DNA from: Nitrospirota bacterium
GTDB lineage: Bacteria > Nitrospirota > UBA9217
Direction of reading: 5' to 3'
DNA: 64,000 bases
Assembly: GCA_963737155.1 (NCBI GenBank)
Contig: CAVTRN010000002.1
Coordinates: 1,056,001 to 1,120,000, forward strand
Made by a program: the position numbers and the translations under genes. Under the pieces are notes generated by a model. The model searched no databases. It was not told the origin of the DNA and was given only the letters and a program-made list of their open reading frames with translations. Positions 11,445-64,000 of this stretch are shown one piece after another. The first letter of the stretch is position 1. Every line of letters begins with the position of its first letter.

Positions 11445-11448
11445 CATT

Positions 11449-11706: not shown

Positions 11707-11824
11707 GATTGTTACAAGCACGGCTGAATGCGGATTAAGAGACAAACTGTGGAAGGGGTTTTTTACCGTATGTATCCCTCTGTTTCTGAAGCGCAGGGAG
11801 CCGTGGTTATGGATATGGGTTACT

Positions 11825-12628: not shown

Positions 12629-12733
12629 AGGCTGTGCACGGCTGTGCATTGCTAGTCCGGTGGATACGGGATTTCCTCGACACCGGACCTTAGCGATGCC
12701 ACTGACCGGAACGAGAGCCGAGGTCCTTTCTCC

Positions 12734-13150: not shown

Positions 13151-14379
13151 CCTTTGTCAAGGGACTCCGGTGCGTGGAGTGTGGCAGGGAATATAAGTGC
13201 GAACCCCTCTACGTATGCGAGTTCTGCTTCGGTCCGCTTGAAGTCGACTACGACTACGCACGGATCAGGAAGGATATGACAAAGCAAAAGATCGAGTCGC
13301 GTCCCTGTAATATGTGGCGCTATCGTGAACTTCTGCCTGTCGACGGTGACCCGGTCACGGGTTTCGATTCCGGTTTCACGCCACTGGTGAAGGTTCGGAA
13401 CTTGGCCGAAGCATGGGGCGTAAAAGAAATTTATCTTAAAGACGATTCAGTGAACCACCCGACGTTGTCATTCAAGGACCGTGTTGTCGCGGTGGCTGTA
13501 ACGAAAGCCAGGGAATTCGGTTTTGACACCGTTGCCTGCGCATCGACTGGCAACCTGGCGAATTCCCTTGCGGCTTTGTCTGCTCGGGCAGGCATGAAAC
13601 GGTTTATCTTCACGCCGTCGAACCTGGAATATTCGAAGACCATCGGTTCACTGATTTATAAGCCAAATCTGGTTATGGTGGATGGCGCCTACGATGAGGT
13701 TAACCGGCTTTGCTCCGAAATTGCGGATAAATATCGATGGGCCTTTGTGAATATCAACCTGCGGCCTTTCTATGGCGAGGGTTCGAAGTCCATGGGTTTC
13801 GAGATTGCTGAACAGCTGGGCTGGAAAACACCGGACAATATTGTGGTACCCAATGCAAGCGGATCTCTCTTAACGAAGCTCTGGAAGTCATTTAAAGAAC
13901 TGGAAACAATCGGGCTCGTCCCGGCCGTCAAGACCCGGGTATTCGCCGCACAGGCCGCCGGCTGTAATCCAATCATAACGGCCATCAGGGAAGGAAGCGA
14001 CATCATCAGGCCGGTGAAACCTCGGACCATCGCACGATCGATCTCCATCGGAAACCCGGCTGACGGCTATTACGCCGCAAAAGTAACCAGGGACTCCGGC
14101 GGATACGGTTCCGATGCAACGGATGAGGAGATTGTGGACACGATACAGAGTCTTGCCGAGACTGAGGGGATGTTTGTGGAGCCCGCGTGTGGCGCGACCG
14201 TGGCGGTGGCCAAAAAGCTTGTGGACTCGGGCCGGATAAATAGGGACGGGACACTCGTTCTCTGCATCACTGGCAACGGGCTTAAGACCGCCGAGGCAAT
14301 CGCGGACCGGCTCACGATGCCGGTGCCGATAAAACCGAACATTGAGTCTTTCGAGGAACTGATGAAGAAAATCCACTAG
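13147..14379 (+). CDS. Threonine synthase-like fold-type II PLP enzyme
   Basis: N-terminal CVECG...CEFCFGPL Zn ribbon, [10 protein letters not shown] (PLP lysine), [17 protein letters not shown]; GTG start overlaps the JAB stop. Confidence 0.9.
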
Positions 14380-14488
14380 TTACTTCAACACAGGCATCGC
14401 GGAGCAACGATTCATGCTGACCGTTGTAGAACTCGGTGACGCGTGCCCGGTTTTAAAATACGTTTTCTCTCGTCTAGGAGGAGCGACC

Positions 14489-14767
14489 ATGTCGATTAAA
14501 GTGAGAATCCCCACACCGCTGCAAAAACTCACCGGCGGAAAAGCTGAGGTGGAATGCGACGCAAAAAATGTTTTAGAGCTTGTCGATGTTCTTGAGAAGG
14601 ATTACCCCGGGATAAAAGAACGGCTGTCGGACGGCGGGAAGATCCGGCGGTTCATCAATATTTACGTGAATGAAGAGGATATCCGCTTCATGAACAAGGA
14701 AGAAACAACACTCAAAGACGGGGATAGTATTTCCATCGTTCCCGCCATTGCAGGCGGACGCTGTTAA
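14489..14767 (+). CDS. MoaD/ThiS/CysO-family sulfur carrier, C-terminus ...IAGG-RC
   Basis: [31 protein letters not shown] plus 2 extra residues. Confidence 0.93.
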
Positions 14768-14873
14768 TGCCCACATCCGCAATCAGAGGCTGGATCGCGT
14801 AGACGAAGCTTTTTTGGCAGGTGTTGTCTTTTTCACCGTCTACGCTGCGGCACCGCGGACTTCAGGAGGGAGC

Positions 14874-15119
14874 ATGGCGACAAAAAGGGTCAAGTTGACG
14901 TTTCCGCAGGAACTGATCAAGGAGCCCATCATTTTCACCATGGCGAGGCAGTTCAATATAATGCCGAACATCCGCAGCGCCAAGGTCACTGAAAGCGTGG
15001 GCGAGGTTATGCTGGAACTTGATGGCGAAGAGAATGAACTTGCGGCTGGCATCGCCTATCTCAAGGAGCGCGGCGTCAAGGTAGATGCTGGCGAAGGTGG
15101 TGATCCGGCAGGTTCTTGA
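14874..15119 (+). CDS. Stand-alone NIL-domain protein
   Basis: KRVKLTFPQELIKEPII...PNIRSAKVTESVGEVMLELDG. Confidence 0.85.
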   Translation: MATKRVKLTFPQELIKEPIIFTMARQFNIMPNIRSAKVTESVGEVMLELDGEENELAAGIAYLKERGVKVDAGEGGDPAGS

Positions 15120-49470: not shown

Positions 49471-50123
49471 GTGATATCATTCGAAAGATCAGAAAAGATT
49501 TTCATGCAGCACTTTCCATGGATCCTGCCGCTACGAACAGACTAGAGGTCGCTCTGACGTATGCAGGTGTTCACGCGCTTCTGCTCTACCGTTTCGCCCA
49601 CTGGCTGTGGACAAAACGCATTCCTTTTGTTCCGCGTGCTCTGTCACAGTTAGGACGGTTCCTGACGGGCATTGAAATTCATCCCGGTGCGACAATAGGC
49701 TCGGGGTTGTTCATTGACCATGGGATGGGAGTGGTAATCGGCGAGACAGCGGAGATCGGCGATAACGTCACGCTGTTTCAGGGGGTGACGCTTGGAGGAA
49801 CGGGCAAACAGCGGGGTAAACGACACCCGACGTTGGGGAGCCACGTTGTCGTGGGTGCCGGCGCAAAGGTGCTTGGCCCCATAAAAATTGGCGATTATGT
49901 CAAGATCGGTGCTAACTCGGTGGTGCTTCAGGATGTGCCGGATCATTCAACCGTGGTCGGCATTCCCGGGAAAATTGTTAGAATCAAGGACGAACGCGTT
50001 CCCGATGAAGCGCTTCTCGACCATATCCACATCCCCGATCCCATCGCGGACCGGTTCATCGATCTTCAGGTGCAGATCGATTCACTGAAAAGAGACTTGG
50101 AGAATCTTCGACAAAAAAAATGA
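49467..50123 (+). CDS. cysE: Serine O-acetyltransferase
   Basis: [35 protein letters not shown]. Confidence 0.96.
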
Positions 50124-50165
50124 TTGCAAAAATCCTGATAGGTGATGAGTCAGGCTTAAACATCG

Positions 50166-50600
50166 TCAATCCTCTATGATTTTATAACTGTGCTTGATTG
50201 TTCCCGCCTTCGCTAGTGTTGCCCCGACTGAGCAGTACTTATCGAGGGACAAGGCAATAGCTCTTTCAACTGCCTCCTTTTCAACACCCTTACCCCTCAC
50301 GACATACTCGATATGAACTGATTTGTACACTTGCGGAGGGTTTTCGGCCTTTTCTCCCTGTATATTGATTTCAAGACCTGTGACGGGCTGACGTTTTTTC
50401 CGAAGAATTGATATAACGTCCATACCCGAGCAACCGCCGAATCCGACGAGCAGCAGTTCCATGGGCCGGAATCCCGCATTGTGACCACCGGCTGTATCAT
50501 CGGCGTCCATGTTCAGGGTATGACCAGACGTTGCATTGCCTGTAAACAGCATATCATGCATGAGAGTTACTTTTGCTTCAACCATGTTTTCTGACTCCAT
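50166..50600 (-). CDS. OsmC family protein
   Basis: RPMELLL.GFGGCSGMDV, SLDKYCSV. Confidence 0.92.
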   Translation of the reverse strand: MESENMVEAKVTLMHDMLFTGNATSGHTLNMDADDTAGGHNAGFRPMELLLVGFGGCSGMDVISILRKKRQPVTGLEINIQGEKAENPPQVYKSVHIEYVVRGKGVEKEAVERAIALSLDKYCSVGATLAKAGTIKHSYKIIED

Positions 50601-51442
50601 TCCTGTAATGAAATAAAAAGCGGTCTAAAAATTTAATCATCGTACCAGAAAGTCTTTGTGGCTGTCAATGGCCATTCCTAAAAACATAAAAATTTATCTC
50701 CCGCAACGATGACGGCAGCTGTTATATCCTGCACAAAACCATCCAAAGCTCGGACTGATCCGCGATAAATAAGCTGCCGCACCTAGGCCCGACGTGCTGA
50801 TTGCAGGTATTCAGATCCAGTGCGCAAATGCCTGTCTCGCCGGCCGACAACGATGACAGCGACAGCGGGGTCGGCAGGCAGCTTCATAAGCGTTGGTCTG
50901 TTGCGTTAAGGCAGGACCAATCTCAGTGACCTTTTTGAGGTTGCCAAGCCTTTTTTTCAGCGAATGTGGGAAGTCGCCCTCGTGGCGCGTCTAGATCATT
51001 TTTCTGGTTATGACTGAATACGCGAAAATACAGAGCGACAACACCCGAAGCAGTTTCCTCCTCTTAAATATTAAGTGTCCCGATTGGCATTTGCGGAACC
51101 TGCGGCAGTTTAATTGCTTTCCGTCCGTTTCTGATCGGTTCAACACTTATACCTTGTTGCTTTGAAATATGTTTAATTTAATAATGATATTATGATATAT
51201 ATACTAATATTTTATAACAAAAAATAAGCAGCGTCTGGTCGTATTTTTAATTACATTCGTTTTCTTTGGGGAAAATAGACAATAACTAAATAACTTTAGT
51301 ATTATTTAAAAAAATCGGCATATTAAGCGTTTCTCTACAGAAATAATGGTGAAGACGCCATAATTCAAGGACTCACCTCGTTATCAGAATATATAAGATT
51401 ATGATTAATAAATGGATTAATTTTTAAAGATCACATTGTCTG

Positions 51443-51457
51443 TGGCACTTAAATTGC
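51443..51457 (+). promoter_or_regulatory. Sigma54 (-24/-12) promoter motif upstream of dsrA
   Basis: TGGCAC-TTAAA-TTGC, exact consensus, in an AT-rich region. Confidence 0.7.
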
Positions 51458-51585
51458 GGGAAAATAATTTGATTTCATTGCTTATCCATAAAAGGCATGT
51501 AACTATTTGTAATAATTTAGTTGTTAAATGAATATTCGCAACCGTGATAATTATATGCGTTTATAGCAGAATTAATTTTTTTTAT

Positions 51586-51614
51586 TTGACTAAAACAGAA
51601 AGTACACTTACAAT
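51586..51614 (+). promoter_or_regulatory. Sigma70-like promoter upstream of dsrA
   Basis: TTGACT-N17-TACAAT with an A/T-rich upstream tract. Confidence 0.65.
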
Positions 51615-51856
51615 CGCATTTCCTGACGTTGCTAAAGAAGTGATGTTTCATCGATAATTATTTACCTGCCCACCTCAGTTCACTAATAAAACCGTTAGCA
51701 GAAAGGGGGATCATTCACCATAATTCTGATAATTTCGCAGTCTGTCATTTGCGAATGGTTGCGAACGCCATAGATCAGAACCTCCATTTTCGCAAATACT
51801 TTTGAGTTCACCGAATGAATAATGTACTGATATAAATCTATAAGGAGGATTTCCTA

Positions 51857-53035
51857 ATGAGCAAAGATGGTAAGACACCAATGCTAGACGACCTGGAAAA
51901 AGGCGCATGGCCGAGTTTCGTAAAAGAGATCAAAACAGCCGCAAAGAGAAGCAACACGGCTCAAGATCTTCTCGGCATCCTGGAGAGATCTTATAGGGAC
52001 AAAGTCACCCACTGGAAGCACGGAGGGATTGTGGGCGTACTTGGTTACGGCGGGGGCGTTATCGGACGTTACTGCGATCTTCCCGAAGAGTTCCCCGGTG
52101 TGGCCCATTTCCATACCGTTCGTGTAAACCCCCCGTCAGGTTTTTTCTATACCTCCAAGGCACTCAAAGAACTGTGCGATATCTGGGATAAATACGGCAG
52201 CGGCATGACGAACATGCACGGATCTACTGGTGATATGATTTGGCTTGGCACTCAAACCGACAAGCTCGAGCCAATCTTCGCCGAGATAACTGCAAAGGGA
52301 TGGGACCTCGGCGGTTCCGGTTCATGCCTTCGTACTCCGAGTTCCTGCGTGGGCATGGCACGCTGCGAGTTTTCGAACATCGATACTATGAACATCTGCC
52401 ACACCTTCACCCAGAAATTCCAGGATGAACTCCATCGTCCTGCATTCCCTTACAAATTCAAGATCAAGGTATCCGGCTGTGCCAATGACTGCACTGCGGC
52501 AGTGGCACGCGCCGACATGTCCATCATCGGCACCTGGCGCGACAACATCCGTATCGACGCGGCTGAGGTGAAGAATTATTCCAAGGACATGGACATCAAG
52601 ACGGAAGTAACCGATATGTGCCCGACCCACTGCATGAGCTGGGACGGCAGCAGTCTCAAGATTAACGACAAGGATTGCAACCGCTGCATGCATTGCATAA
52701 ACCGCATGCCGAAAGCATTGCGTCCTGGCAAAGAGAAGGGCGCGACCATCATGTTGGGCGGAAAGGCCCCAATCGTGACGGGCGCTCTTATGAGCTGGGT
52801 TCTTGTTCCCTTCATGAAGCTTGAGGCACCCTATGATAACCTGGAAGACCTTATCCGCAAGCTGTGGGAATGGTGGGATGAGCATGGAAAGAATCGTGAA
52901 CGTATCGGCGAACTCGTCGACCGTATGGGCATGAGATCCATGCTTGAAGCCACCGGCATCCCGCCGGTCCCGCAGATGGTAAAGGCACCGAGGACCAACC
53001 CCTATGTGTTCTGGGCAGAGGGTGAAGTGCAGTAG
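51857..53035 (+). CDS. dsrA: Dissimilatory sulfite reductase alpha subunit
   Basis: TPMLDDLEKGAWPSFV, THWKHGGIVGV, CX5C...FPYKFKIK..GCANDC. Confidence 0.99.
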   Translation: MSKDGKTPMLDDLEKGAWPSFVKEIKTAAKRSNTAQDLLGILERSYRDKVTHWKHGGIVGVLGYGGGVIGRYCDLPEEFPGVAHFHTVRVNPPSGFFYTSKALKELCDIWDKYGSGMTNMHGSTGDMIWLGTQTDKLEPIFAEITAKGWDLGGSGSCLRTPSSCVGMARCEFSNIDTMNICHTFTQKFQDELHRPAFPYKFKIKVSGCANDCTAAVARADMSIIGTWRDNIRIDAAEVKNYSKDMDIKTEVTDMCPTHCMSWDGSSLKINDKDCNRCMHCINRMPKALRPGKEKGATIMLGGKAPIVTGALMSWVLVPFMKLEAPYDNLEDLIRKLWEWWDEHGKNRERIGELVDRMGMRSMLEATGIPPVPQMVKAPRTNPYVFWAEGEVQ

Positions 53036-53076
53036 TCATACACTGATTCGAATAATATCAAGGAGGGAAACCTATA

Positions 53077-54150
53077 ATGGCTGACAAACCGAAAAGAATA
53101 ACAGATCTTGGTGCACCCGACTACCATAAATTTCTGCCTCCCGTAATCACAAAAAATTATGGAAAGTGGAAGTACCATGAATATATCAACAAAGGTACGA
53201 TGAAGCATGTGTCCGAAACCGGCGACGAGCTGTATACTGTCCGCATCGCAACGTCCCGTCTTGTAAGCACCGACTTCATCCGTGAGATGTGTGATCTCGC
53301 TGAAAAATTCAGCGGCGGGCACCTCCGCTGGACGACCCGCCATAACGTCGAATTTTTCCCGGCAAAGGAGCAGGTTGACGCTCTTCAGGTAGAACTCAAG
53401 AAACGCGGCCACCTTGTCGGTGGTATCGGCTACGGCATCAGCAATGTGGTACATACTCAGGGATGGATCCATTGCCACACCCCTGCCACGGACGCTTCGG
53501 GTGTTGTGAAGGCGGTCATGGACGAACTTCATGAATACTTTACCACGAAGAGTCTTCCGGCACGCGTCAGAATCGCCTTGGCCTGCTGCCTGAATATGTG
53601 CGGCGCAGTCCACTGCTCTGACATTGCCATACTCGGGATTCACCGCAAACCCCCGAAGGTAAACGAGGCTACGCTCGGAAACCAGTGCGAAATTCCGACG
53701 ACTATTGCATCGTGCCCCACGGGCGCCATCAGCCCGAACCCGGCAACGAAATCAGTGAAAATCAAGGCCGAGCGCTGTATGTATTGCGGCAACTGCTATA
53801 CCATGTGCCCATCACTTCCGATCGCCGATGGGACTGGTGACGGCATTTCCATCTATGTCGGTGGCAAGGTGTCGAATGCACGCGGGCCAGCCCGCATGTC
53901 CAAGCTTGTTATCCCGTTTCTTCCGAACAATCCGCCACGCTGGCCCGAAACGGTCAAGGCGGTCAAGCATCTTGTCGAGGTCTATGCTCAGAATGCTAAA
54001 AAACATGAACGGATGGGCGAATGGATCGAGCGCATCGGCTGGGAGCGGTTTTTCAAACTGACCGGCCTGGCATTTACGTATCAGCACATTGATGACTTCA
54101 CCTTTGCCCGTGATACATTCAGAATGACCCCCACATTCAAGTGGGAATAA
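53077..54150 (+). CDS. dsrB: Dissimilatory sulfite reductase beta subunit
   Basis: [45 protein letters not shown]. Confidence 0.99.
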
Positions 54151-54173
54151 GCCTTATCGTCCGGACTCCATGT

Positions 54174-54204
54174 CGGCCCCGGTATTCATCCGGGGCCGGT
54201 TTTT
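54174..54204 (+). terminator. Terminator-like hairpin between dsrB and dsrD
   Basis: GGCCCCGG-TATTCAT-CCGGGGCC followed by GGTTTTT. Confidence 0.65.
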
Positions 54205-54240
54205 CTGATGCTGTGAACAACATAACCGGAGGGGGAAACT

Positions 54241-54477
54241 ATGGACGCCGCAGAACTGCAGAAAAAAGTTTATGAACTGGTAGAAAAGAACATGGGGAAA
54301 AAGAAGATGAAAGCCGGCGACATCACTAAGGCCATGGAAGCCGAAGGCGCAAGCAGGGATGAAGTCAAGGCAGCCATTCGTGAGCTTGTTGACGGCGGCA
54401 GGCTGGTGTATTCGTATTTCGGCGGAAGTTTCATAGAAATTCCTCATACGGAAGGCTCGGCCAACCCACAATCATAA
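54241..54477 (+). CDS. dsrD: DsrD
   Basis: 78 aa winged-helix-like, ELVDGGRLVYSYFGGS, directly after dsrB. Confidence 0.85.
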   Translation: MDAAELQKKVYELVEKNMGKKKMKAGDITKAMEAEGASRDEVKAAIRELVDGGRLVYSYFGGSFIEIPHTEGSANPQS

Positions 54478-55895
54478 TGCAGAATATTCCGAGGCTGGTG
54501 CTTTCAGCCACCCGGGGAGGGCTCGGCAAGACAACGCTCTCAATCGGGATTGTCGCTGCTTGGAGAAAAGCCGGCAGACAGGTTGCGGTTTTTAAAAAAG
54601 GGCCTGATTTCATCGATGCGGGTTGGCTGGGCGTTGCAGCCGGAAAACCCTGCTACAATCTTGATCTTTTCATGATGGGGCAGGAGTGCATCAAAAAGTC
54701 ATTCCAGGAACATACAAAGGGTTCCGATGCCGCCATCATTGAAGGCAACAGGGGACTCTTTGATGGTGTTGATGAATCAGGGACTTACAGTACGGCACGG
54801 CTAGCCGGTTTGTTAAAAGCTCCGGTGGCGCTTATTGTCGACTGTACAAAAGCTACGAGTACCGTCGCAGCAACGGTATTAGGATGCAGACAGTATGATC
54901 CATCGGTCAATCTGGCGGGGGTCATCCTCAATAATGTATCGTCAACGCGTCACGAGAGTGTAATCAGAAAGGCTATCGCACAAAGCAGTGATCTCCCTGT
55001 AGTTGGTGCAGTCCCTCGGCAACGGGGGGATGCTTTTCCGGAACGGCACATGGGATTGACGCCGTTTCACGAACATCCTGAAATGCAGCAGGCAATATCT
55101 TCGTCAACGTCCCTTGTGGAAAGCTATCTTGATCTTGATGCGTTGTGGTCAATTGCCTGTGCGACGCCGGAGATCGAGTGTGCGCCGAGCGCATCAGCCG
55201 ATGACCCTGTCACGACACGAGGTGATCGGGTCGTGATTGGAGTGATCAGGGATCGAGCGTTTCAGTTTTATTACCCTGATAACCTGGAGGCACTGGAGAG
55301 CCAGGGGGCCACGCTCAGAGAAATAAACGCGCTTCACGACAGGGCACTGCCCGGTGATATCGATGCGCTCTATATTGGCGGCGGTTTTCCCGAAACTCAG
55401 GCCGCGGAGCTGGCGGGAAATGAAAGTTTTTGCGCATCAGTGCGGAATGCGGTGGAAACCGGCTTGCCTGTTTACGCTGAGTGTGGCGGACTCATTTATC
55501 TTGGTAGGAGTCTTATCGTCGGCAGTGAACGCTTTCCTATGACCGCAGTGCTGCCGGTTGATTTTGTGCTTGAAAAAAGTCCGCAGGCGCATGGTTATAC
55601 GATCCTGAAAACAAGCGACTCAAGCACGTTCCTTGAAAAAGGCATTGGCATTCGTGGTCATGAGTTCCACTATTCCAGGATTTACCATATTGACGGAAAT
55701 CCGTTAATGGCGTATCATGTTGCGAGGGGTTCCGGTATAAATGGTATGGGGGATGGCATCATCTATAAAAACGTATTAGCTTCCTATACTCATATCCATT
55801 CCTTGGCTACACCGCAATGGGCACCTGCCATGATACGCATTGCCCGTAAACGCCGCAATGCTCTAGTCGAACTAAGAGAACAGGGGATCTCGTGA
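54477..55895 (+). CDS. dsrN: Siroheme amidase (cobyrinate a,c-diamide synthase-like)
   Basis: GGLGKT, KKGPDFID, IEGNRGLFDG, GGGFPE, AECGG, GHEFHYS; inside the dsr cluster. Confidence 0.9.
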   Translation: MQNIPRLVLSATRGGLGKTTLSIGIVAAWRKAGRQVAVFKKGPDFIDAGWLGVAAGKPCYNLDLFMMGQECIKKSFQEHTKGSDAAIIEGNRGLFDGVDESGTYSTARLAGLLKAPVALIVDCTKATSTVAATVLGCRQYDPSVNLAGVILNNVSSTRHESVIRKAIAQSSDLPVVGAVPRQRGDAFPERHMGLTPFHEHPEMQQAISSSTSLVESYLDLDALWSIACATPEIECAPSASADDPVTTRGDRVVIGVIRDRAFQFYYPDNLEALESQGATLREINALHDRALPGDIDALYIGGGFPETQAAELAGNESFCASVRNAVETGLPVYAECGGLIYLGRSLIVGSERFPMTAVLPVDFVLEKSPQAHGYTILKTSDSSTFLEKGIGIRGHEFHYSRIYHIDGNPLMAYHVARGSGINGMGDGIIYKNVLASYTHIHSLATPQWAPAMIRIARKRRNALVELREQGIS

Positions 55896-56251
55896 ATCCA
55901 GGGACAAGGGGGAGTATTGAGCCAACCTGCCCTTTTTGCAGTAGTAAACTTGAACCTCCCAAAACCATGGTTCTCAATGTCATGGAAAGCGTTGAGGGGG
56001 GAACATGCAAGACCTGTGGCGCGTTCTACATCGCCGATCCGACGGGCAAGAACCTCGGAGAGGTGATGATGCAGGCGCTCGGGGTGGTGGCGGAAACGTT
56101 GTCAAAAGACATGGCTGACATGGTTCTCGGAGAGGATTACGAAGACGCGGTTTTGAATTATGATATCCGGACACATCGTTCCACAGGGATCAGCAGAGGT
56201 TTTAATGGCCAGGGACGGCTTTATATACTAAATGTAAAACGCAAATTATAA
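55892..56251 (+). CDS. Uncharacterised Cys-rich (CPFC...CKTC) protein in the dsr cluster
   Basis: GTG start overlaps dsrN stop; two CxxC pairs. Confidence 0.8.
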   Translation: MNPGTRGSIEPTCPFCSSKLEPPKTMVLNVMESVEGGTCKTCGAFYIADPTGKNLGEVMMQALGVVAETLSKDMADMVLGEDYEDAVLNYDIRTHRSTGISRGFNGQGRLYILNVKRKL

Positions 56252-56364
56252 TGGCGGGCATTAAGGTTTGTTTTGAGCGGACCACGGGTGATGCAGGAAC
56301 CGGGAATTACAGTTGAGGGAGCTAATGAGGCGCCCGAACACAATTAACGAAAGGGGACAAAAAG

Positions 56365-56700
56365 ATGGGAACAATTTCGGTAGCGGGTAAAACGATCGAA
56401 GTGGATGAGGACGGCTTCCTGGCTAATCTGGACGACTGGAGTATGGATGTGGCCAAATACTTTGCGGAGGTTGAGGGAATCGAGATGTCCGACCAGCACT
56501 GGGAAGTAGTGAATTTCCTCCGTGACTACTACAAGCAGTATCAGATCGCGCCCATGATCAAGATTCTGGTGAAGGAGATCGGCAAGAAACTTGGGCCCGA
56601 AAAAGGCAATACCAAGTACCTTTATGAGCTTTATCCGGGCGGTCCGGCAAAGCAGGCTTGCAAAATCGCGGGTCTTCCGAAACCGACTGGCTGCGTATAG
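56365..56700 (+). CDS. dsrC: Sulfur carrier DsrC
   Basis: VDEDGFL, HWEVVNFLR, C-terminal ACKIAGLPKPTGCV with both CX10C cysteines. Confidence 0.97.
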   Translation: MGTISVAGKTIEVDEDGFLANLDDWSMDVAKYFAEVEGIEMSDQHWEVVNFLRDYYKQYQIAPMIKILVKEIGKKLGPEKGNTKYLYELYPGGPAKQACKIAGLPKPTGCV

Positions 56701-56863
56701 TAACTAGAAATTTCCCGAATTAATTCGGTTGTGAGCGCCTCTAACTTTTAAAGTGGCGGCCTGACCTGAGGAAAAAGTATCGGCCGACTTTACCTGATAT
56801 GCGGCAAGTGTCAGGGTGTGCGACAACGGTCGGGTACACAAAATTCAGGAGGAAGTGACCGTT

Positions 56864-57049
56864 ATGTACATGGTTGCAGTTGACAAAAAAAAGTGCGACG
56901 GTTGTGGCACCTGCGTAAATGTTTGTCCTCAATCCGTTTTCAAAATGGAGGGAGACAAGTCTGAACCGGTGAACATGTCCGAATGCATTAATTGCCTTAC
57001 CTGCGTTGAGAATTGCCCGCAGCAGGCGATTACGGTTACTGAGATATAA
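56864..57049 (+). CDS. 2[4Fe-4S] ferredoxin
   Basis: CDGCGTCVNVCP and CINCLTCVENCP; SD AGGAGG. Confidence 0.93.
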   Translation: MYMVAVDKKKCDGCGTCVNVCPQSVFKMEGDKSEPVNMSECINCLTCVENCPQQAITVTEI

Positions 57050-57076
57050 TGCGGTAACATTGAGTCATACCGAAAG

Positions 57077-57108
57077 GGGATAGTTGAAAAATTATCCCCT
57101 GTTTTTTT
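57077..57108 (+). terminator. Rho-independent terminator after ferredoxin
   Basis: GGGGATAGT...ATTATCCCC-TG-T7. Confidence 0.7.
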
Positions 57109-57135
57109 ATATCGAACTTGCTCTCGGGAGGTGAG

Positions 57136-57438
57136 ATGATGAAGCTAGCGGTTTTTTTAAGCGATTGGAGAAGGACGGAGAACAGTTTTGAGAGAATGAA
57201 AGCCGACAAGCTCGGCGTTATTCTCGTCGGCAACGGAATCTATCATGCTGTGGTGAAGGAAGGCGGGAAGGAATCCCCCGTGCTTTCGAAGGCGGGCGCG
57301 AACTTCTACGTTCTGTCTGACGATCTGGAAACGAGAGGATATACGGCGGCGAATGTGAATTCAAAGGTGAAAATCATCGGATATGGCGATATCGTCGATC
57401 TGATCATGAATGATTACGAAAAAACGGCGTGGTTGTAG
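57136..57438 (+). CDS. dsrH: DsrH/TusB-family protein
   Basis: VILVGNGIYHA, YVLSDDLETRG, IGYGDIVDL. Confidence 0.85.
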   Translation: MMKLAVFLSDWRRTENSFERMKADKLGVILVGNGIYHAVVKEGGKESPVLSKAGANFYVLSDDLETRGYTAANVNSKVKIIGYGDIVDLIMNDYEKTAWL

Positions 57439-57555
57439 AAATCCGAAAGCGGGGCGCGCTATGGCGGAGGGGGGATTGCAAATGGACGTTATCCTATCCA
57501 CTGCAGGACAGAGGCACCCTGTATCAAATACGACAATTTTATAAGGAGGAGAACT

Positions 57556-57915
57556 ATGGGAGAACTGACAATTGGATCGTTCCCTTCCCTGGTCGGCTCG
57601 ATGTCACTGGATTTTACCTTTAAACTTGCCGAGGCGGCAATCGGCAAAGGGCACAAGGTAAATTTGTGGCTGTCCGGCAACGCGGTGATGATGGCCAAAA
57701 AGGGACAGAAGGCTTTCAAAGATTATTCGCACATGGAAAAACGCATGAAGGAACTTATCGCCAAGGGAATGGAGATTACCGTGTGTGAGGCCTGCGCGGA
57801 AGCGCGAGGTTACCATAAGGAAGACACTCCCGAGGGCATGAAACGCGCCAGTATGGACTGGTATTTGGCGAAGACCGTGAAGACCGACAAGCTGCTTCAT
57901 ATCGGAGGTGAGTAA
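57556..57915 (+). CDS. dsrE: DsrE-family sulfurtransferase
   Basis: AEAAIGKGHKVNLWLSGNAV, VCEACAEARG. Confidence 0.8.
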   Translation: MGELTIGSFPSLVGSMSLDFTFKLAEAAIGKGHKVNLWLSGNAVMMAKKGQKAFKDYSHMEKRMKELIAKGMEITVCEACAEARGYHKEDTPEGMKRASMDWYLAKTVKTDKLLHIGGE

Positions 57916-58329
57916 ATGGGCGCCGTAAAAATATTGTTTGTAGTGCAAAGACCGCCGTACAAGAGCGAGAACCCCCGCCTTGCGCTCACCCATGCTATTT
58001 CAAGCCAGACGGCAGAGATTTATATGGATGACGGGGATTCCGTGGTGCCTACCCTTGTGTTCGTTGGCGACGGAGTGTTGAACGCCGTGAAGAACCAGCA
58101 GGCCATGAAGCTCTACGGTGTGACGAGCACCGAAAGTCATATCAAGAATAGCTTGCTTGTTGACGTGCCCGTCTGGGTATGCAAGGAAGATATGGAACAT
58201 TTCGGCCTGAAGGAAGACCAGATGATCACCGATGCTGAAGAGCTCGGCGGGGAGCTGAAGACGAAATTCGTCAGTTTCGCAGAGATTCAAAAAGAGATGG
58301 AATCGGTCAAACATCTTCTCTTCTTCTAA
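57916..58329 (+). CDS. dsrF: DsrF/TusC-family protein
   Basis: ILFVVQRPPY, VFVGDGVL..VKNQ, VWVCKEDM. Confidence 0.8.
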   Translation: MGAVKILFVVQRPPYKSENPRLALTHAISSQTAEIYMDDGDSVVPTLVFVGDGVLNAVKNQQAMKLYGVTSTESHIKNSLLVDVPVWVCKEDMEHFGLKEDQMITDAEELGGELKTKFVSFAEIQKEMESVKHLLFF

Positions 58330-58338
58330 TGTTACGTA

Positions 58339-58360
58339 CCCTGCAGCAATTGCTGCAGGG
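58339..58360. repeat. Perfect 22-bp palindrome (REP / IS605-end-like)
   Basis: CCCTGCAGCAATTGCTGCAGGG. Confidence 0.8.
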
Positions 58361-58389
58361 ATGTTTGCTATCAGTTCATCAAAGAAAAA

Positions 58390-58905
58390 ATGAAGCTTAA
58401 AGAGCATTTAACGGAAAAGAAAACCGACATTCTGCGAAAATGGTTTGATGCCGTTGTGGAGACCTATCCGAACGAGACGTCCACCTTTTTAAAAAAGCAG
58501 AAAGCCCAGTTTACGAATCCCGTCGGTTATACGCTTTCGGAAGGGCTCGAACATCTTTTCGACGCACTGCTGCGGGGAATGCTTCCTGACACCGTATCAC
58601 GGTTTCTCGACAGCATTATAAGAATCCGCGCCATCCAGGCATTCACCCCTTCCGAGGCCGTTTTATTCATTTTCCAGCTCAAGAAGCTGGTCCGTCAGGA
58701 ACTCGGGACTGAGATCCTGCACCAGCAGGGGATTGTCGAGGAACTGGCGGCCTTTGATTCAGCGACCGATGATCTGGCTCTCTATGCGTTCGATCTTTAC
58801 ATGAAATGCAGGGAAAAAATTTACGATATCAAGGCAAACGAAGCTAGAAACATGACCTTCAGGCTATTGCAGCAGGCGCGTCTTATCGTTGACAACCAGG
58901 ACTGA
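58390..58905 (+). CDS. dsrT: DsrT (RsbRD N-terminal domain protein)
   Basis: QFTNPVG, IIRIRAIQAFTPSEAV, AFDLYMKCREKIY; directly before dsrM. Confidence 0.92.
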   Translation: MKLKEHLTEKKTDILRKWFDAVVETYPNETSTFLKKQKAQFTNPVGYTLSEGLEHLFDALLRGMLPDTVSRFLDSIIRIRAIQAFTPSEAVLFIFQLKKLVRQELGTEILHQQGIVEELAAFDSATDDLALYAFDLYMKCREKIYDIKANEARNMTFRLLQQARLIVDNQD

Positions 58906-58958
58906 GGCCGGTGAAGACCGTTCCGAGCTGTTAACCTAAAACGAAAAGAGGTAACGAA

Positions 58959-59951
58959 ATGAAAGCCTTATCTGCATTCATCGTAGTACTGTTCCTTGTA
59001 CTAGTTGCCTATATGGGGGTGGAGACGGCAAATGCGCACTTTCTCTTTGGCGTTGTTTTCCCCTACGCGGCTGTTGCCCTCTTCATCGGGGGCATGATCT
59101 TCCGAATCCTCAAATGGGGCAGCGCGCCGGTCCCTTTCCGCATTCCGACGACTTGCGGGCAGCAGAAGTCGTTCTCATGGATCAAACACAGTAAGCTTGA
59201 AAATCCTTCGGGAACAATCGGGGTGATGGGCAGGATGGCTCTCGAAGTCCTGTTTTTCCGTTCGCTTTTCAGAAACCTCAAAACACAAATGCAGGACGGT
59301 GGAAAACTGACGTATGGAGAGGCCAAATGGCTCTGGGCCGCCGGTCTGGCATTTCACTGGTCTTTTCTCATCGTACTTATCAGGCATTTACGGTTCTTTA
59401 CCCAGCAGGTACCGGCGGCAGTGCAGATGGTCGCGGAGCTCGACAGCTTCCTCCAGATTGGAGTGCCGCTTCTATACATGACCGATGCCGTACTCCTTGC
59501 TGCCGTAACCTATCTCTTTATTAGAAGAATCAGCTTGCCCCAGGTTCGTTATATCTCCCTCATGAATGATTATTTTCCTCTGTTCCTGATCTTTGGGATT
59601 GCGCTTTCCGGTGTGCTCATGCGGTACTTTTTTAAAACAAACATCGTGAGCGTAAAGATGCTTGCCATGAGCCTCGTCAGCTTCAAACCGGAAGTTCCCC
59701 AGGGGATAGACGCGATCTTCTACATTCACCTGTTTCTCTTGTGCACGTTGTTTGCTTATTTCCCGTTTAGCAAACTTGTGCATATGGCCGGCGTATTCAT
59801 GAGCCCCACCCGTGTGCTGGCTAATACCAGCCGTGTGAAGCGGCATATTAACCCCTGGAATTACCCCGTCCATGTTCATACCTATGAAGAATACGAAAAC
59901 GACTTCAGGGCAAAGATGAAAGATGCCGGCCTGCCGGTAGAAAAGGAGTAA
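58959..59951 (+). CDS. dsrM: DsrM membrane cytochrome b
   Basis: PVPFRIPTTCGQQ, AFHWS...IRHLR, IHL...PFSKLVH. Confidence 0.96.
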   Translation: MKALSAFIVVLFLVLVAYMGVETANAHFLFGVVFPYAAVALFIGGMIFRILKWGSAPVPFRIPTTCGQQKSFSWIKHSKLENPSGTIGVMGRMALEVLFFRSLFRNLKTQMQDGGKLTYGEAKWLWAAGLAFHWSFLIVLIRHLRFFTQQVPAAVQMVAELDSFLQIGVPLLYMTDAVLLAAVTYLFIRRISLPQVRYISLMNDYFPLFLIFGIALSGVLMRYFFKTNIVSVKMLAMSLVSFKPEVPQGIDAIFYIHLFLLCTLFAYFPFSKLVHMAGVFMSPTRVLANTSRVKRHINPWNYPVHVHTYEEYENDFRAKMKDAGLPVEKE

Positions 59952-59953
59952 TC

Positions 59954-61573
59954 ATGGCGAAACTTCCGAAACCAGAAGAATTAGCGAAAGTTGATTACAC
60001 GCTGCCGAAGACGGGCTGGATGGAAACGCCTGTCGTGTTTAAAGAGGGCATGTTCTGCCATGGGTCGAAGCCGAAAAGCCTCGAGATTGTCGGGTTCCCG
60101 AACCCGCGTGATTGGCGGCCAGCGGATGCGGACTGGAAGCTGCCTGAGAACTGGAAGGAAATCCTGATTAAGGGTATTGCGGACCGACTGAAAAAATACC
60201 GGTCCTTCCAGCTCTTCATGGACATCTGTGTACGCTGTGGCGCCTGTGCTGACAAGTGTCACTTCTTCATCGGTACCGGAGACCCGAAGAACATGCCGGT
60301 TCTCAGGGCCGAGCTTATCCGCTCGGTTTACCGTCAGGAATTCACGCTTGCCGGAAAAATTCTTGGTAAGATGGCAGGAGGGCGAGAACTGACGCTCGAC
60401 GTACTGAAGGAATGGTGGTACTACTTCTATCAGTGTACGGAATGTCGCCGCTGCTCGGTATTCTGTCCCTACGGCATCGACCAGGCCGAGATTACAATCA
60501 TTGGCCGGGAACTCCTCAATGAACTCGGCCTCAACATCGAGTGGATCGCCGGTCCCGTATCGAACTGCTATATGAAAGGTAATCATCTCGGTCTCGAACC
60601 GCACACGATTATCGGAAACCTGGAATATATGCTGGACGACATTGAGACTGTGACCGGGAAAAAGATCAAACCTACATTTAACAGAAAAGGCGCGGAGATT
60701 CTCTTTGTTACTCCGTCCGGCGATCTTTTCGCGGACCCGGGTACATACACTTGTATGGGTTACCTAATGCTGTTTGAGGAGCTCGGCCTTGATTATACTT
60801 GGAGCACCTACGCGTCAGAAGGCGGAAATTTCGGCTTCTTTACCACGAACGAGATGGCGAAGCGGCTCAATTCCAAAATATATGCCGAAGCCAAGCGTCT
60901 CGGCGTGAAGTGGATCTTAGGAGGAGAGTGCGGTCACATGTGGCGGGTGCTCTCACAATATATGGACACCTGGAACGGTCCGGCTGATTTTCTCGAAGTG
61001 CCGAAATCGCCGATCACTGGCACGGTCTTCGAACAGGCGAAGTCAATGAAGATGGTCCATGTTGCCGAGTTCACCGCCGACCTGATACGAAACAACAAGC
61101 TTAAACTCGATCCGAAGCGGAATGACCACCTCAAGGTTACGTGGCACGATTCCTGTAATACCGCGCGCGGTATGGGCCTGCTTGAAGAACCACGATACGT
61201 GCTCAAAAATGTGGTGAATCACTTCTACGAAATGCCGGAGGATACGATCCGCGAAAAGACTTTTTGTTGCGGCAGCGGCACAGGACTGAATGCGTCGGAA
61301 GACATGGATCTCCGCATGAAGGGCGGGTTCCCCCGCGCAAACGCCGTCAAGTTCGTGCAGGAGCATCACGGAGTTAACATGCTTGCCAATGTGTGCGCCA
61401 TTGACCGAGCGACGCTCAAGGCCCTCATGGATTACTGGGTGCCGAGCGTGGGGGTCTGTGGACTCCACGAATTGGTGGCGAACGCTCTCGTTATGACGGG
61501 CGAAAAGGAGAGGACGACCGACCTGCGCGGCGAACCCCTTCCATTAGCTGAAGTGAAGGAGGGAAAAGCCTAA
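59954..61573 (+). CDS. dsrK: DsrK (HdrD-like Fe-S catalytic subunit)
   Basis: CVRCGACADKC, CTECRRCSVFCP, GECGH, WHDSC, FCCG. Confidence 0.97.
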   Translation: MAKLPKPEELAKVDYTLPKTGWMETPVVFKEGMFCHGSKPKSLEIVGFPNPRDWRPADADWKLPENWKEILIKGIADRLKKYRSFQLFMDICVRCGACADKCHFFIGTGDPKNMPVLRAELIRSVYRQEFTLAGKILGKMAGGRELTLDVLKEWWYYFYQCTECRRCSVFCPYGIDQAEITIIGRELLNELGLNIEWIAGPVSNCYMKGNHLGLEPHTIIGNLEYMLDDIETVTGKKIKPTFNRKGAEILFVTPSGDLFADPGTYTCMGYLMLFEELGLDYTWSTYASEGGNFGFFTTNEMAKRLNSKIYAEAKRLGVKWILGGECGHMWRVLSQYMDTWNGPADFLEVPKSPITGTVFEQAKSMKMVHVAEFTADLIRNNKLKLDPKRNDHLKVTWHDSCNTARGMGLLEEPRYVLKNVVNHFYEMPEDTIREKTFCCGSGTGLNASEDMDLRMKGGFPRANAVKFVQEHHGVNMLANVCAIDRATLKALMDYWVPSVGVCGLHELVANALVMTGEKERTTDLRGEPLPLAEVKEGKA

Positions 61574-62001
61574 TGAAACTCTATGACGGAGGTAAAATAC
61601 TCATCGGGCTGGCGGTTTTCCTGGCGTTTGCCCTGTTCCCGTTCTACTACAATATAGGTAAAGTGAACGCCAAACCTGATCCGAAAACGGATACACCGGA
61701 AATCCAGGAGTGGGTAAAAGTTAACGGTAAAAAGGAATGCGTCGAATCGAAGGAGTTCATGCAAAGAGAGCACATGCAGCTTCTGAACAACTGGAGAGAC
61801 GCGGTTGTCCGCAATATGTACCGTGTCTATGTCAGCTCTTCAAGTGGCAAACAGTTCAATATGAGCCTCCAGAATGGGTGTTTGCATTGTCATTCGAACA
61901 AGAAACAGTTCTGCGACCAATGCCACAACTACCTGGCGGTCAATCCGTACTGCTTTGATTGTCATATCCAGCCGATGGAAAAGGAGGAGAACAAATCATG
62001 A
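61573..62001 (+). CDS. dsrJ: DsrJ triheme cytochrome c
   Basis: N-terminal TM, HMQLLNNWRD, three CxxCH motifs. Confidence 0.96.
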   Translation: MKLYDGGKILIGLAVFLAFALFPFYYNIGKVNAKPDPKTDTPEIQEWVKVNGKKECVESKEFMQREHMQLLNNWRDAVVRNMYRVYVSSSSGKQFNMSLQNGCLHCHSNKKQFCDQCHNYLAVNPYCFDCHIQPMEKEENKS

Positions 62002-62828
62002 GCCTGGACAGGAGACAATTTTTGAAGATTGCCGGTATCTCCTCCATTCTGGGGTTCGGCGCCTCGGTCGCGTCTGCAACGCATACGATCTGGGAAAAAG
62101 GTCTAGAGCCACCGCAAATTGAACCGAACAAAGATGCTTTGATTGCAACCCGGTGGGCTATGGTTGTTGATATGAGCAAGTTCAAGACCGATGAGGACAT
62201 CAAGAAGGTTACCAGCGCATGCCATCAGACACATAATGTCCCAGATTTCCGCAATCCTGACGGAACTGTGGACGAAAAATTCGAAATTAAGTGGATTTGG
62301 AAAGAACCTTACGACCGCACTTTCCCGGGCGCGGAAAACAAATTCATGAATGAACGTATAAAGGAAATGCCCTTTATCGTGCTCTGCAACCACTGCGACA
62401 ATCCGCCGTGCGTGCGGGTCTGCCCGACCAAGGCGACATTCAAGTTAACGAACGGAATCACCATGCAGGATGAGCACCGTTGTATCGGGTGCCGTTTCTG
62501 CATGGCCGCCTGCCCTTATGGATCGCGTAGCTTTAACTGGACCGATCCGCGCAAAGCGCTCAATCCGGCAACGGAAAACAAGGCATATCCCACAAGGACC
62601 AAGGGCGTAGTGGAGAAATGCACCTTCTGCTCTGAGCGACTTCAGTTTGGTAAAATTCCGGCCTGTGTAGAGGCTGCTCCTCAAGGCGCCATGTTTTTCG
62701 GGGATATAGAAGACCCCAATTCCGATGTCAGAAAAATCGTAACGACCCAACTTACTACCCGGCGCAAGCCGGATCTGGGGACCGGACCGGCAGTCTATTA
62801 TCTGATAGGAGGGAGCGACCATGCTTGA
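61998..62828 (+). CDS. dsrO: DsrO periplasmic Fe-S protein
   Basis: Tat motif DRRQFLK, CNHCDNPPCVRVCP, CIGCRFCMAACP, KCTFC. Confidence 0.95.
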   Translation: MSLDRRQFLKIAGISSILGFGASVASATHTIWEKGLEPPQIEPNKDALIATRWAMVVDMSKFKTDEDIKKVTSACHQTHNVPDFRNPDGTVDEKFEIKWIWKEPYDRTFPGAENKFMNERIKEMPFIVLCNHCDNPPCVRVCPTKATFKLTNGITMQDEHRCIGCRFCMAACPYGSRSFNWTDPRKALNPATENKAYPTRTKGVVEKCTFCSERLQFGKIPACVEAAPQGAMFFGDIEDPNSDVRKIVTTQLTTRRKPDLGTGPAVYYLIGGSDHA

Positions 62829-63993
62829 AAAGGCATTTGAGGGAGGAAAATCATACTGGGCATGGCTGATGTTTCTCGGCGCCCTTGCCCTGATCGGCGT
62901 TTACTATTATATTCAGCAGTTCCAATATGGGTTGGGTATCACCGGGATGAGCAGGGATGTCTCCTGGGGTCTGTATATAGGCCAGTTCACGTTCCTGGTC
63001 GGCGTCGCAGCTTCGGCTGTCATGCTGGTGATTCCCTACTATCTTCACGACTTTAAAAAGTTCGGGAAGATCGTGATTCTGGGAGAGTTTCTGGCCATCT
63101 CCGCGGTCATCATGTGCATTCTTTTCATCTTCGTGGATATGGGCCAGCCCATGAGAATCATGAACGTGGTATTGCATCCAACACCGAATTCGGTCATGTT
63201 CTGGGATTCCGTGGTGCTTTGCGGATATCTGTGCATCAATCTGCTGGTCGGATGGGTGACGCTCAGCGCGGACCGCAAAGGCATTGCACCGCCGAAGTGG
63301 ATCAAGTTCTTTATTTACCTTTCGATCCCCTGGGCGGTCAGTATCCATACTGTGACGGCGTTCCTTTATTCCGGTCTACCGGCGCGCGAGTTCTGGTTGA
63401 GTGCCGTCATGGCGGCGCGGTTCTTGGCATCGGCGTTCGCCGCCGGTCCGGCGCTGCTTATTGTTCTGGCGCTTATCGTGAGGAAGGTGTCCACATTTGA
63501 TCCAGGCAAAGAGCCTATCCAGGCGGTCGGCAAGATCGTAACGTATGCCATGTTCGCCAACGTATTTCTTCTGGGACTTGAGTTCTTTACGGCGTTCTAC
63601 AGCGGAATTCCCGGCCATTCGCTGCCCTTCAAGTACCTGTATGTCGGTCTTCAAGGCCATTCCGAGCTGGTTCCGCTCATGTGGACGTCGACGATTCTTG
63701 CAGTCCTGTCGCTGGTCTTGCTGGTATTCCCGCAACTGCGGAAGAAAGAAGGCCTGCTGGCATTTGCTTGTGTTTCACTTTTTATTTCACTCTGGATCGA
63801 TAAGGGTTTCGGCCTGATCATCGGCGGTTTTGAGCCGAATCCTTTCGAATATGTGCGTCCTTACTGGCCGACGATGCCGGAAGCGTTGATAACCCTCGGC
63901 GTCTGGGCCATCGGCATCCTTGTCCTGTCCATGCTGTATAAAATCGCTGTTTCCGTGCGAGAACGCATGGCTGGAATCGAGATTGAACATTAA
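62821..63993 (+). CDS. dsrP: DsrP (NrfD/PsrC family) membrane subunit
   Basis: GMSRDVSWGLYI, FLVGVAASAV, SIHTVTAF; about 10 TM helices. Confidence 0.96.
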   Translation: MLEKAFEGGKSYWAWLMFLGALALIGVYYYIQQFQYGLGITGMSRDVSWGLYIGQFTFLVGVAASAVMLVIPYYLHDFKKFGKIVILGEFLAISAVIMCILFIFVDMGQPMRIMNVVLHPTPNSVMFWDSVVLCGYLCINLLVGWVTLSADRKGIAPPKWIKFFIYLSIPWAVSIHTVTAFLYSGLPAREFWLSAVMAARFLASAFAAGPALLIVLALIVRKVSTFDPGKEPIQAVGKIVTYAMFANVFLLGLEFFTAFYSGIPGHSLPFKYLYVGLQGHSELVPLMWTSTILAVLSLVLLVFPQLRKKEGLLAFACVSLFISLWIDKGFGLIIGGFEPNPFEYVRPYWPTMPEALITLGVWAIGILVLSMLYKIAVSVRERMAGIEIEH

Positions 63994-64000
63994 AAAAAGG

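Follow-up and report, generated by a model that had tools for sequence, protein, structure and literature searches.

Genome surveys assign microorganisms to sulfate reduction or to sulfur oxidation by means of marker genes such as dsrD, dsrEFH and dsrL. This report concerns a dsr gene cluster at positions 51857-63993 of a 64,000-nucleotide (nt) stretch of DNA from a Nitrospirota bacterium (contig CAVTRN010000002.1), the whole of which is referred to below as the window. The cluster joins genes for a sulfite reductase of predicted reductive type to three adjacent genes of the DsrE/DsrF/DsrH fold, named H, E and F here and collectively the trio. A reductive dsr cluster together with this trio is standard across the Nitrospirota lineage, and the function proposed for the trio, on balance a probable one, is that of a sulfur relay towards DsrC.

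The combination of dsr genes with DsrEFH-like genes in Nitrospirota is already in print. Anantharaman 2018 (PMC6018805) proposed rules for the use of the markers and describes dsrEFH in Nitrospirae with oxidative DsrAB, and Klier 2024 (PMC11406059) reports that dsrD and dsrEFH co-occur in SAR324, Actinomycetota and Nitrospirota, in mixed sets that keep dsrL. In PMC11033732 the DsrAB of the classes UBA9217 and Thermodesulfovibrionia are of the reductive type, most Thermodesulfovibrionia with reductive dsrAB are described as having 'dsrFH, but no dsrE', and the Nitrospirota classes 9FT-COMBO-42-15 and RBG-16-64-22 have DsrAB of the oxidative type (rDsrAB) with DsrEFH. Plum-Jensen et al. 2026 (PMC13293266) describe a DsrEFH type II in sulfate reducers, Nitrospirota included; of the 985 genomes in which it occurs, 73.9% have reductive dsrAB, and its genes usually lie in synteny with tusA and yeeE. 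Nitrospirota account for 57% of subtype 1 of type II, the subtype most like type I. For the cable bacteria, which possess reductive DsrAB, the same paper shows that a divergent DsrEFH transfers sulfur from TusA to Cys67 of DsrE and from there to DsrC. The form of the trio found in the window, embedded in the dsr operon and without TusA, may be the sole new part of the present observations.

The region is a complete dsr operon of an uncultured Nitrospirota bacterium near the GWC2_57_13 lineage, and it encodes a reductive-type sulfite reductase system (DsrAB, DsrD, DsrN and DsrC) as well as the membrane complex DsrT-MKJOP. It is occupied by 17 open reading frames (ORFs), all on the plus strand. 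Matches to Pfam and NCBIfam families give the order dsrA-B-D-N-orf-C-fdx-H-E-F-T-M-K-J-O-P, just as it had been read in an earlier note on this DNA, and since the same order recurs in related genomes it is real and not due to chance. The same note had described reductive-type DsrAB, DsrD and DsrT beside genes of the DsrE/F/H fold, which is confirmed with the qualification that DsrD is divergent, and had remarked on a missing dsrL, which holds for the window: dsrL, sat, apr, qmo and sox were not found among the 49 ORFs scanned outside the cluster. These 49, all housekeeping genes, were chosen from the 117 ORFs of at least 100 amino acids (aa) in the window, the remainder of which overlap the chosen ones. 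The features of the cluster are:

51857..53035, plus strand: dsrA, alpha subunit of the dissimilatory sulfite reductase, of predicted reductive type (TIGR02064, 565 bits, cut-off 392.85)
53077..54150, plus strand: dsrB, beta subunit (TIGR02066, 484 bits, cut-off 341.5)
54241..54477, plus strand: dsrD-like gene directly 3' of dsrB for a 78-aa winged-helix protein, a probable but divergent DsrD (Pfam DsrD, below cut-off)
54477..55895, plus strand: dsrN, sirohaem amidase, CobB-like a,c-diamide synthase (NF002204, 440 bits; GATase_3 and CbiA domains)
55892..56251, plus strand: orf119, conserved hypothetical protein that contains two C-x-x-C pairs (without Pfam or NCBIfam family)
56365..56700, plus strand: dsrC with both C-terminal cysteines (PF04358, 161 bits; C-x10-C-x end)
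56816..57049, plus strand: small 2x[4Fe-4S] ferredoxin (Fer4 family matches)
57075..57110, plus strand: terminator-like hairpin with an 11-pair stem and a T run, between the ferredoxin gene and H
57136..57438, plus strand: H, dsrH-like, about 100 aa, cysteine-free (PF04077, 40.8 bits; start inferred)
57556..57915, plus strand: E, dsrE-like, 119 aa, with an invariant C77-x-x-C80 (PF02635, 51.2 bits)
57916..58329, plus strand: F, dsrF-like, 137 aa, with a conserved Cys89 (PF02635, 41.8 bits)
58390..58905, plus strand: dsrT, just 5' of dsrM (RsbRD_N domain, 77.9 bits)
58959..59951, plus strand: dsrM (NF038037, 531 bits, cut-off 300)
59954..61573, plus strand: dsrK (NF045796, 730 bits, cut-off 400)
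61573..62001, plus strand: dsrJ (NF038038, 166 bits, cut-off 100)
61959..62828, plus strand: dsrO (NF045797, 285 bits, cut-off 200)
62821..63993, plus strand: dsrP (NF045798, 481 bits, cut-off 350)

The name dsrN for the CobB-like gene is based on its position in the cluster, and the gene with the RsbRD_N domain before dsrM is named dsrT in accordance with customary usage.

The trio is, judged by sequence, a divergent member of the DsrEFH/TusBCD fold family. All three proteins pass the Pfam DsrH/DsrE thresholds, with the scores listed above. The NCBIfam models TIGR03011, TIGR03012 and TIGR03010, which cover both DsrEFH and TusBCD, are failed by H (47.1 bits, cut-off 49.2), E (24.8 bits, cut-off 89.25) and F (34.4 bits, cut-off 94.15), and the equivalogs for TusD, TusC and TusB are failed as well (19.8, 28.3 and 32.9 bits against 92, 79 and 104, respectively); the trio is therefore neither canonical DsrEFH nor canonical TusBCD. 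With these cut-offs failed, the genes in the order H-E-F and the DsrH cysteine missing, the designation 'oxidative-type' that the earlier note had given to the relay is not retained.

The listed ORF of H begins at a TTG at 57118, but homologues and a ribosome-binding site favor an ATG at 57136 or 57139. Against solved structures the H profile matches DsrH of Allochromatium vinosum (E 4.5e-6), TusB (E 2.7e-5) and TM0979 (E 5e-5). Cys20 of DsrH is conserved in type I, and the column of H aligned with Cys20 of A. vinosum DsrH is not a cysteine. In E, Cys77 takes the place of the active-site Cys78 when E is aligned with A. vinosum DsrE; the E profile finds YchN first (E 4.3e-4) and then DsrE (E 0.01) among solved structures, and does not match solved TusD. 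The ESM Atlas gives generic DsrE clusters for E at 0.89, which serves as a lead only. For F, no sequence match to solved structures was obtained; its AlphaFold2 (AF2) model (pLDDT 78) has as best Foldseek match A. vinosum DsrF (2hy5_B; E 2.5e-7, TMq 0.74, 18% identity), ahead of DsrE, YchN and TusC, and by a weak profile alignment its cysteine is in register with Cys77 of E. H and E are separated by a spacer of 117 nt (57439-57555), and E and F abut. A frameshift between H and E, where a 64-aa ORF lies in another frame (57429-57623), was considered and rejected, as E has its full length and a ribosome-binding site of its own, and the small ORF belongs to no family.

The distribution of the trio was followed in a locus scan with one genome per species, in which 190 matching stretches encode a relative; the best 80 were fetched (L001-L080), and all of them are from Nitrospirota and carry the trio family. 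A protein collection clustered at 90% contains 311 relatives of E, and among the best 120 of these all whose names include a taxon are from Nitrospirota, with Thermodesulfovibrionales and Ca. Magnetoovum among the named hosts. When a distant member served as query, the named hosts in the best 120 of 332 matches were again confined to Nitrospirota. As far as seen among the matches listed, the trio family appears to be restricted to Nitrospirota. Searched against plasmids with tblastn, E gave 8 records with 31-38% identity, five of them annotated as DsrE family proteins; in the one plasmid context that was inspected the E-like gene stands alone.

Mapping of the 16 proteins of the window onto the 80 loci located E-F in every one of them and H-E-F in 79, the exception being L022. 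The earlier note had held the co-occurrence of reductive markers with such a trio to be uncommon, a view at odds with these counts for the best 80 of 190 matching species. Two arrangements were observed. In the window-type loci L001-L044, whose E is 82-98% identical to that of the window, the trio lies inside the dsr operon: dsrC is upstream of the trio in 43 of the 44 loci, that is in all but L040, whose sequence begins too late, and F is followed by dsrT in 41, with misses in L029 and, at a contig edge, in L036 and L037. In the more distant loci L045-L080 (E identity 66-72%) the trio is located after dsrMKJOP-fdx, divergent from dsrMKJOP-fdx, or elsewhere, with a dsr gene at most 3 kb from E in 18 of 36. 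There tusA stands directly 3' of F in 34 of the 36 loci, the two misses ending at a contig edge; Pfam confirmed tusA after F at L068:10799-11044 and L077:10800-11060, and no yeeE was present among the neighbors scanned in these two loci. A FastTree phylogeny of concatenated H, E and F (76 rows, five loci having been left out for incomplete ORFs or odd length) splits 42 operon-embedded from 34 tusA-linked rows by one branch (support 100).

The C-x-x-C motif of E is kept in 80/80 loci, the cysteine of F in 77/77 orthologues (in two of them with a slightly different surrounding motif) and both C-terminal cysteines of DsrC in 57/57 orthologues. Median identities to the window proteins across L003-L044 amount to 91.9% for DsrC, 91.7% for DsrK, 89.9% for DsrB, 89.1% for E, 86.7% for DsrA, 83.8% for H, 83.5% for F, 75.7% for DsrM, 70.9% for DsrT and 67.6% for DsrN. 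E is thus about as conserved as DsrB, DsrC and DsrK, and from these values the trio is under constraint as strong as that on the catalytic core.

The sulfite reductase with which the trio is combined is of the reductive type according to the sequence of its alpha subunit. DsrA and DsrB pass the equivalog cut-offs of TIGR02064 and TIGR02066, and window DsrA scores 511-538 bits against five solved reductive DsrA, compared with 322 bits (39% identity) against the oxidative rDsrA of phage Lau218, the sole named oxidative-type sequence compared. A DsrA search of 1.84 billion cluster representatives delivered 921 matches, with about a dozen near full length among the best 150. Window DsrA shares 59% identity with representative P0127, which scores 501-570 bits on the solved reductive DsrA, and 44% with representative P0132, itself 62% identical to the rDsrA of the phage. 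The maximum-likelihood tree that was calculated contains 23 rows, namely the window, 10 of the 37 DsrA from the loci, 11 of the 150 representatives and one phage rDsrA, the representatives being labelled indirectly by BLAST against the phage rDsrA and by search against solved structures. In this tree the window groups with the 10 Nitrospirota loci, P0127 and P0138 (support 90/91), and P0132, P0140 and the phage rDsrA stand apart in a clade of their own (100/100). The earlier note had called for a DsrAB phylogeny; the present DsrA tree puts DsrA on the reductive side, outside the clade of the single oxidative anchor, and this placement, in a thin tree, agrees with the assignment of class UBA9217 in PMC11033732. 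No match to DsrA was found in a tblastn search of plasmids.

The dsrD-like protein is probably a divergent DsrD. No Pfam family other than DsrD is matched, and this one with 17.9 bits, under the cut-off of 24.2; 8 of 11 orthologues match the same family at E <= 0.01. Solved DsrD was not found from this protein in single-sequence and profile searches against solved structures. Its AF2 model is a winged helix (pLDDT 85.7), for which Foldseek places Z-alpha domains on top and the DsrD structures 1wq2 and 1ucr at ranks 31 and 41 (TMq 0.62-0.64), a non-specific match of the fold.

A described relative close to the window is Nitrospirae bacterium GWC2_57_13 (L021), which lies inside the window's clade in both trees (DsrA; H+E+F) and was matched by name to the genus GWC2-57-13 (GTDB class UBA9217), which Diao et al. 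2023 list in their survey (PMC10591310, Table S1). Within the part of this table that was covered, the row for the genus has dsrD = 1 and dsrT = 1, and dsrE, dsrF, dsrH and dsrL = 0; with its sat, aprAB and qmoABC entries, treated below, this nearest described relative has the appearance of a complete sulfate reducer that lacks DsrL. The same pattern of dsrE/F/H = 0, dsrL = 0 and dsrD at least 1 is given for 30/30 Nitrospirota rows in the part covered, and two of these rows, with the genera UBA6898 and GW-Nitrospira-1, match by name the trio-bearing loci L067 and, less surely, L074. From these zeros, set against the trio present in the loci, it follows that this survey of 950 genomes did not register the trio family, which it gives as absent in all 30 covered rows even though the loci contain it. 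For this lineage, which is widespread in groundwater and soil, assignments made from marker genes may therefore be incomplete.

When the trio is compared with DsrEFH type II (PMC13293266), both are divergent three-subunit DsrEFH-like sets accompanied by reductive DsrAB, both have a conserved DsrE cysteine, and Nitrospirota are named among the main hosts of type II. Likeness in structure at low identity is seen here in the F model (18% identity, TMq 0.74) and in the E match to DsrE (E 0.01), and the tusA linkage is common to both, though here it is found in the distant relatives and not in the window-type loci. Given the same hosts, the tusA link, subunit sizes like those of type I and the position of the cysteine, the window trio is probably part of type II subtype 1. 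It differs from type II of the cable bacteria, where the genes adjoin yeeE and tusA and are co-transcribed with tusA, the trimer is of about 33 kDa and the active cysteine is Cys67: the window genes are ordered H-E-F inside the dsr operon without adjoining tusA or yeeE, the active cysteine of E would be at position 77, and the subunits of 100, 119 and 137 aa are all recognized by Pfam.

With type I of A. vinosum (PDB 2HY5) the window shares the folds, the presence of three adjacent DsrE/F/H-fold genes and similar sizes, the A. vinosum chains having 130, 102 and 132 residues. In contrast to type I, E and F of the window fail the NCBIfam DsrE and DsrF models by a wide margin, and the order is H-E-F, whereas type I genes are ordered E-F-H after dsrAB in systems with rDsrAB and DsrL. 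The window H lacks a cysteine where DsrH has Cys20, the window E has an additional cysteine in its C-x-x-C, and the trio is paired with reductive DsrAB, DsrD and DsrT and not with DsrL. The mixed sets of dsrD, dsrEFH and dsrL in SAR324, Actinomycetota, Nitrospinota and some Nitrospirota resemble the window in that reductive and oxidative markers are combined within a single genome, and their direction is debated (PMC6018805, PMC11406059). These sets retain dsrL and type I-like DsrEFH that cluster with those of sulfur oxidizers; the window has neither. In the SAR324 genomes with DsrD, DsrEFH is on another scaffold, unlike the window trio inside the operon.

It is proposed that the trio acts as a TusA-to-DsrE-to-DsrC relay which feeds zero-valent sulfur into a reductive-type Dsr system, a function which we regard as on balance probable. 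H, E and F would form a DsrEFH-like heterotrimer in which Cys77 of DsrE would accept sulfane sulfur, most likely from a TusA protein, and pass it on to a cysteine of DsrC. Zero-valent sulfur could in this way enter the DsrC/DsrMKJOP/DsrAB system, and a sulfate or sulfite reducer could also oxidize sulfur or sulfide, or run the oxidizing half of a disproportionation. The relay fold is deduced from the best solved match of H, which is DsrH, from the best structural match of F, which is DsrF, and from the alignment of Cys77 of E with Cys78. The relay is further supported by the invariant cysteines, by the strong constraint on the trio and by its linkage to dsr genes and, in the distant loci, to tusA, and the transfer from TusA through DsrE to DsrC in the cable bacteria is its biochemical precedent.

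A number of observations weigh against the relay. Neither tusA nor yeeE is present in the window operon or in the 44 window-type loci, and the only TusA gene of the window is 46 kb from the trio, in a biosynthetic-looking cluster. The trio shares its transcription unit with DsrD and DsrT, both of them associated with reduction, and the GWC2-57-13 row of PMC10591310, in the part covered, has full sat/aprAB/qmoABC and no dsrL, as expected of a plain sulfate reducer. PMC8794893 stresses that operation in reverse has never been demonstrated for a reductive DsrAB, and the DsrA tree is thin, with one named oxidative anchor and representatives without names. Among the proteins themselves, H of the window is without a cysteine, as are 64 of its 78 orthologues, and among solved structures E is nearest in sequence to YchN, a protein without a known function, and not to DsrE. 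With these points taken into account, a sulfur relay towards DsrC, as the earlier note had suggested, stays the best hypothesis.

The reading that comes next assigns the trio to the reductive direction or to sulfur salvage and takes the organism to be simply a sulfate or sulfite reducer, which we consider possible but unlikely. Sulfane sulfur would be taken off DsrC (as persulfide or trisulfide intermediates) or off the sulfide formed when sulfite is reduced, and directed to TusA and biosynthesis, or the trio would buffer reactive sulfur. Such a role would suit a trio embedded in an operon with DsrD and DsrT, as well as the sat, aprAB and qmoABC of GWC2-57-13 and the 30/30 Nitrospirota survey rows with dsrD and without dsrL, all in the covered part of PMC10591310; it would also suit the location of the only TusA gene of the window among genes for ThiF-, JAB- and ThiS-like proteins and a pyridoxal phosphate (PLP) enzyme. 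On the other hand, the sole divergent DsrEFH that has been tested biochemically works one way, towards DsrC, with no donation back (PMC13293266), and most canonical sulfate reducers are without such a trio (PMC10591310, PMC8794893).

A more far-reaching version of the relay would see in the operon-embedded, TusA-less trio a third functional kind of DsrEFH, by which one operon runs the Dsr pathway both ways without DsrL and without a TusA/YeeE import module. It would be marked by a DsrE with C-x-x-C, a DsrF that has a cysteine and a DsrH that has none, all co-transcribed with DsrD, DsrC and DsrMKJOP. We hold this version to be unlikely. If it were true, a single operon would serve sulfite reduction and sulfur oxidation or disproportionation without DsrL. 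Irrespective of that, the operon, which combines DsrD, DsrC and a DsrEFH-like trio in one transcription unit without DsrL, is a compact natural test case for whether reductive-type DsrAB can reverse, a question left open in PMC8794893 and PMC13293266.

Another reading is a redox role, in which E would be a YchN-like thiol-disulfide protein that, together with F and H, acts on the disulfide or trisulfide of DsrC or on another thiol and so helps DsrMK; we consider it improbable. Escherichia coli YchN (PDB 1JX7) is the best solved sequence relative of E and has the same C-x-x-C spacing, Cys80 is invariant in 80/80 loci and absent from A. vinosum DsrE in the alignment, and F keeps a cysteine at the equivalent position. 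Against this reading, YchN itself is without a known function, and whereas 1JX7 contains six chains of one sequence, E of the window is flanked by H and F, which resemble subunits of the DsrEFH complex. The linkage to tusA in 34 of the 36 distant loci points instead to persulfide traffic.

It is very improbable that the trio is a TusBCD homologue for the synthesis of tRNA 2-thiouridine and that its location among dsr genes is incidental. E. coli TusBCD (PDB 2D1P) belongs to the same fold family and follows the same three-subunit logic, one source names homologues of E 'tRNA 2-thiouridine synthesizing protein D', and H scores nearly equally on TusB and DsrH. However, the three Tus equivalog cut-offs are failed, the E profile is without a match to solved TusD, and the context is one of dsr genes, with a conserved linkage, and not of tRNA modification. 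The neighboring DsrC, moreover, has both cysteines and is therefore DsrC rather than a TusE-type protein. Just as improbable is a dedicated sulfur oxidizer with a canonical reverse Dsr system (type I DsrEFH and oxidative rDsrAB), for which the DsrE/F/H-fold genes and the rDsrAB with DsrEFH of classes 9FT-COMBO-42-15 and RBG-16-64-22 (PMC11033732) might speak, since the DsrA branches outside the clade of the oxidative anchor, DsrD and DsrT are encoded, dsrL is missing from the window and the cut-offs of the type I equivalogs are failed.

Of 42 window-type loci, 37 have the small ferredoxin encoded between dsrC and H and 5 do not. A second small 2x[4Fe-4S] ferredoxin follows directly after dsrP in the nearest relative, L001 (16580-16765), which extends beyond the end of the window; there the cluster ends after this second ferredoxin gene and unrelated genes come next. 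Among the loci that reach that far, a ferredoxin gene after dsrP is found in 26 of 34 window-type and 16 of 18 distant ones, wherever the trio sits. In ordinary sulfate reducers, too, dsr loci commonly include ferredoxin genes. The suggestion made earlier that the ferredoxin stands in for DsrL finds no support in this distribution, with the gene after dsrP in 16/18 distant loci and the gene between dsrC and H absent in 5/42 window-type loci.

The gene orf119 may be an undescribed dsr accessory gene. A complete related ORF was found in 53 of the 80 loci, and its relatives are located between the dsrN and dsrC matches wherever both of these appear. The nearest Atlas clusters consist of unnamed proteins from Nitrospirota and Thermodesulfobacteriota. 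The two C-x-x-C pairs of orf119 are zinc-ribbon-like, and in L051 and L061 the ORF over the orf119 region has about 350 aa with weak HEAT-repeat matches.

Terminator-like hairpins were observed after dsrB (54172-54200), between the ferredoxin gene and H (57075-57110) and between F and dsrT (58339-58360); by the latter two the trio is bracketed. The number of terminator-like sites in the region is not above that in shuffled sequence (16 found, 14.6 expected), and the same applies to promoter-like sites. Upstream of dsrA, positions 50600-51857 form an AT-rich stretch of 1.2 kb without long ORFs (GC 0.41 in the bin 50001-52000) that holds several promoter-like sites. Rfam gave no match in 50000-64000.

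The TusA gene of the window, at 11353-11706 (PF01206, 70 bits), belongs to a cluster at 11353-15119 that further encodes a ThiF/MoeB-like adenylyltransferase, a JAB peptidase, a threonine-synthase-like PLP enzyme, a ThiS/MoaD-like carrier and a NIL-domain protein. This cluster resembles a protein-thiocarboxylate pathway of sulfur insertion.

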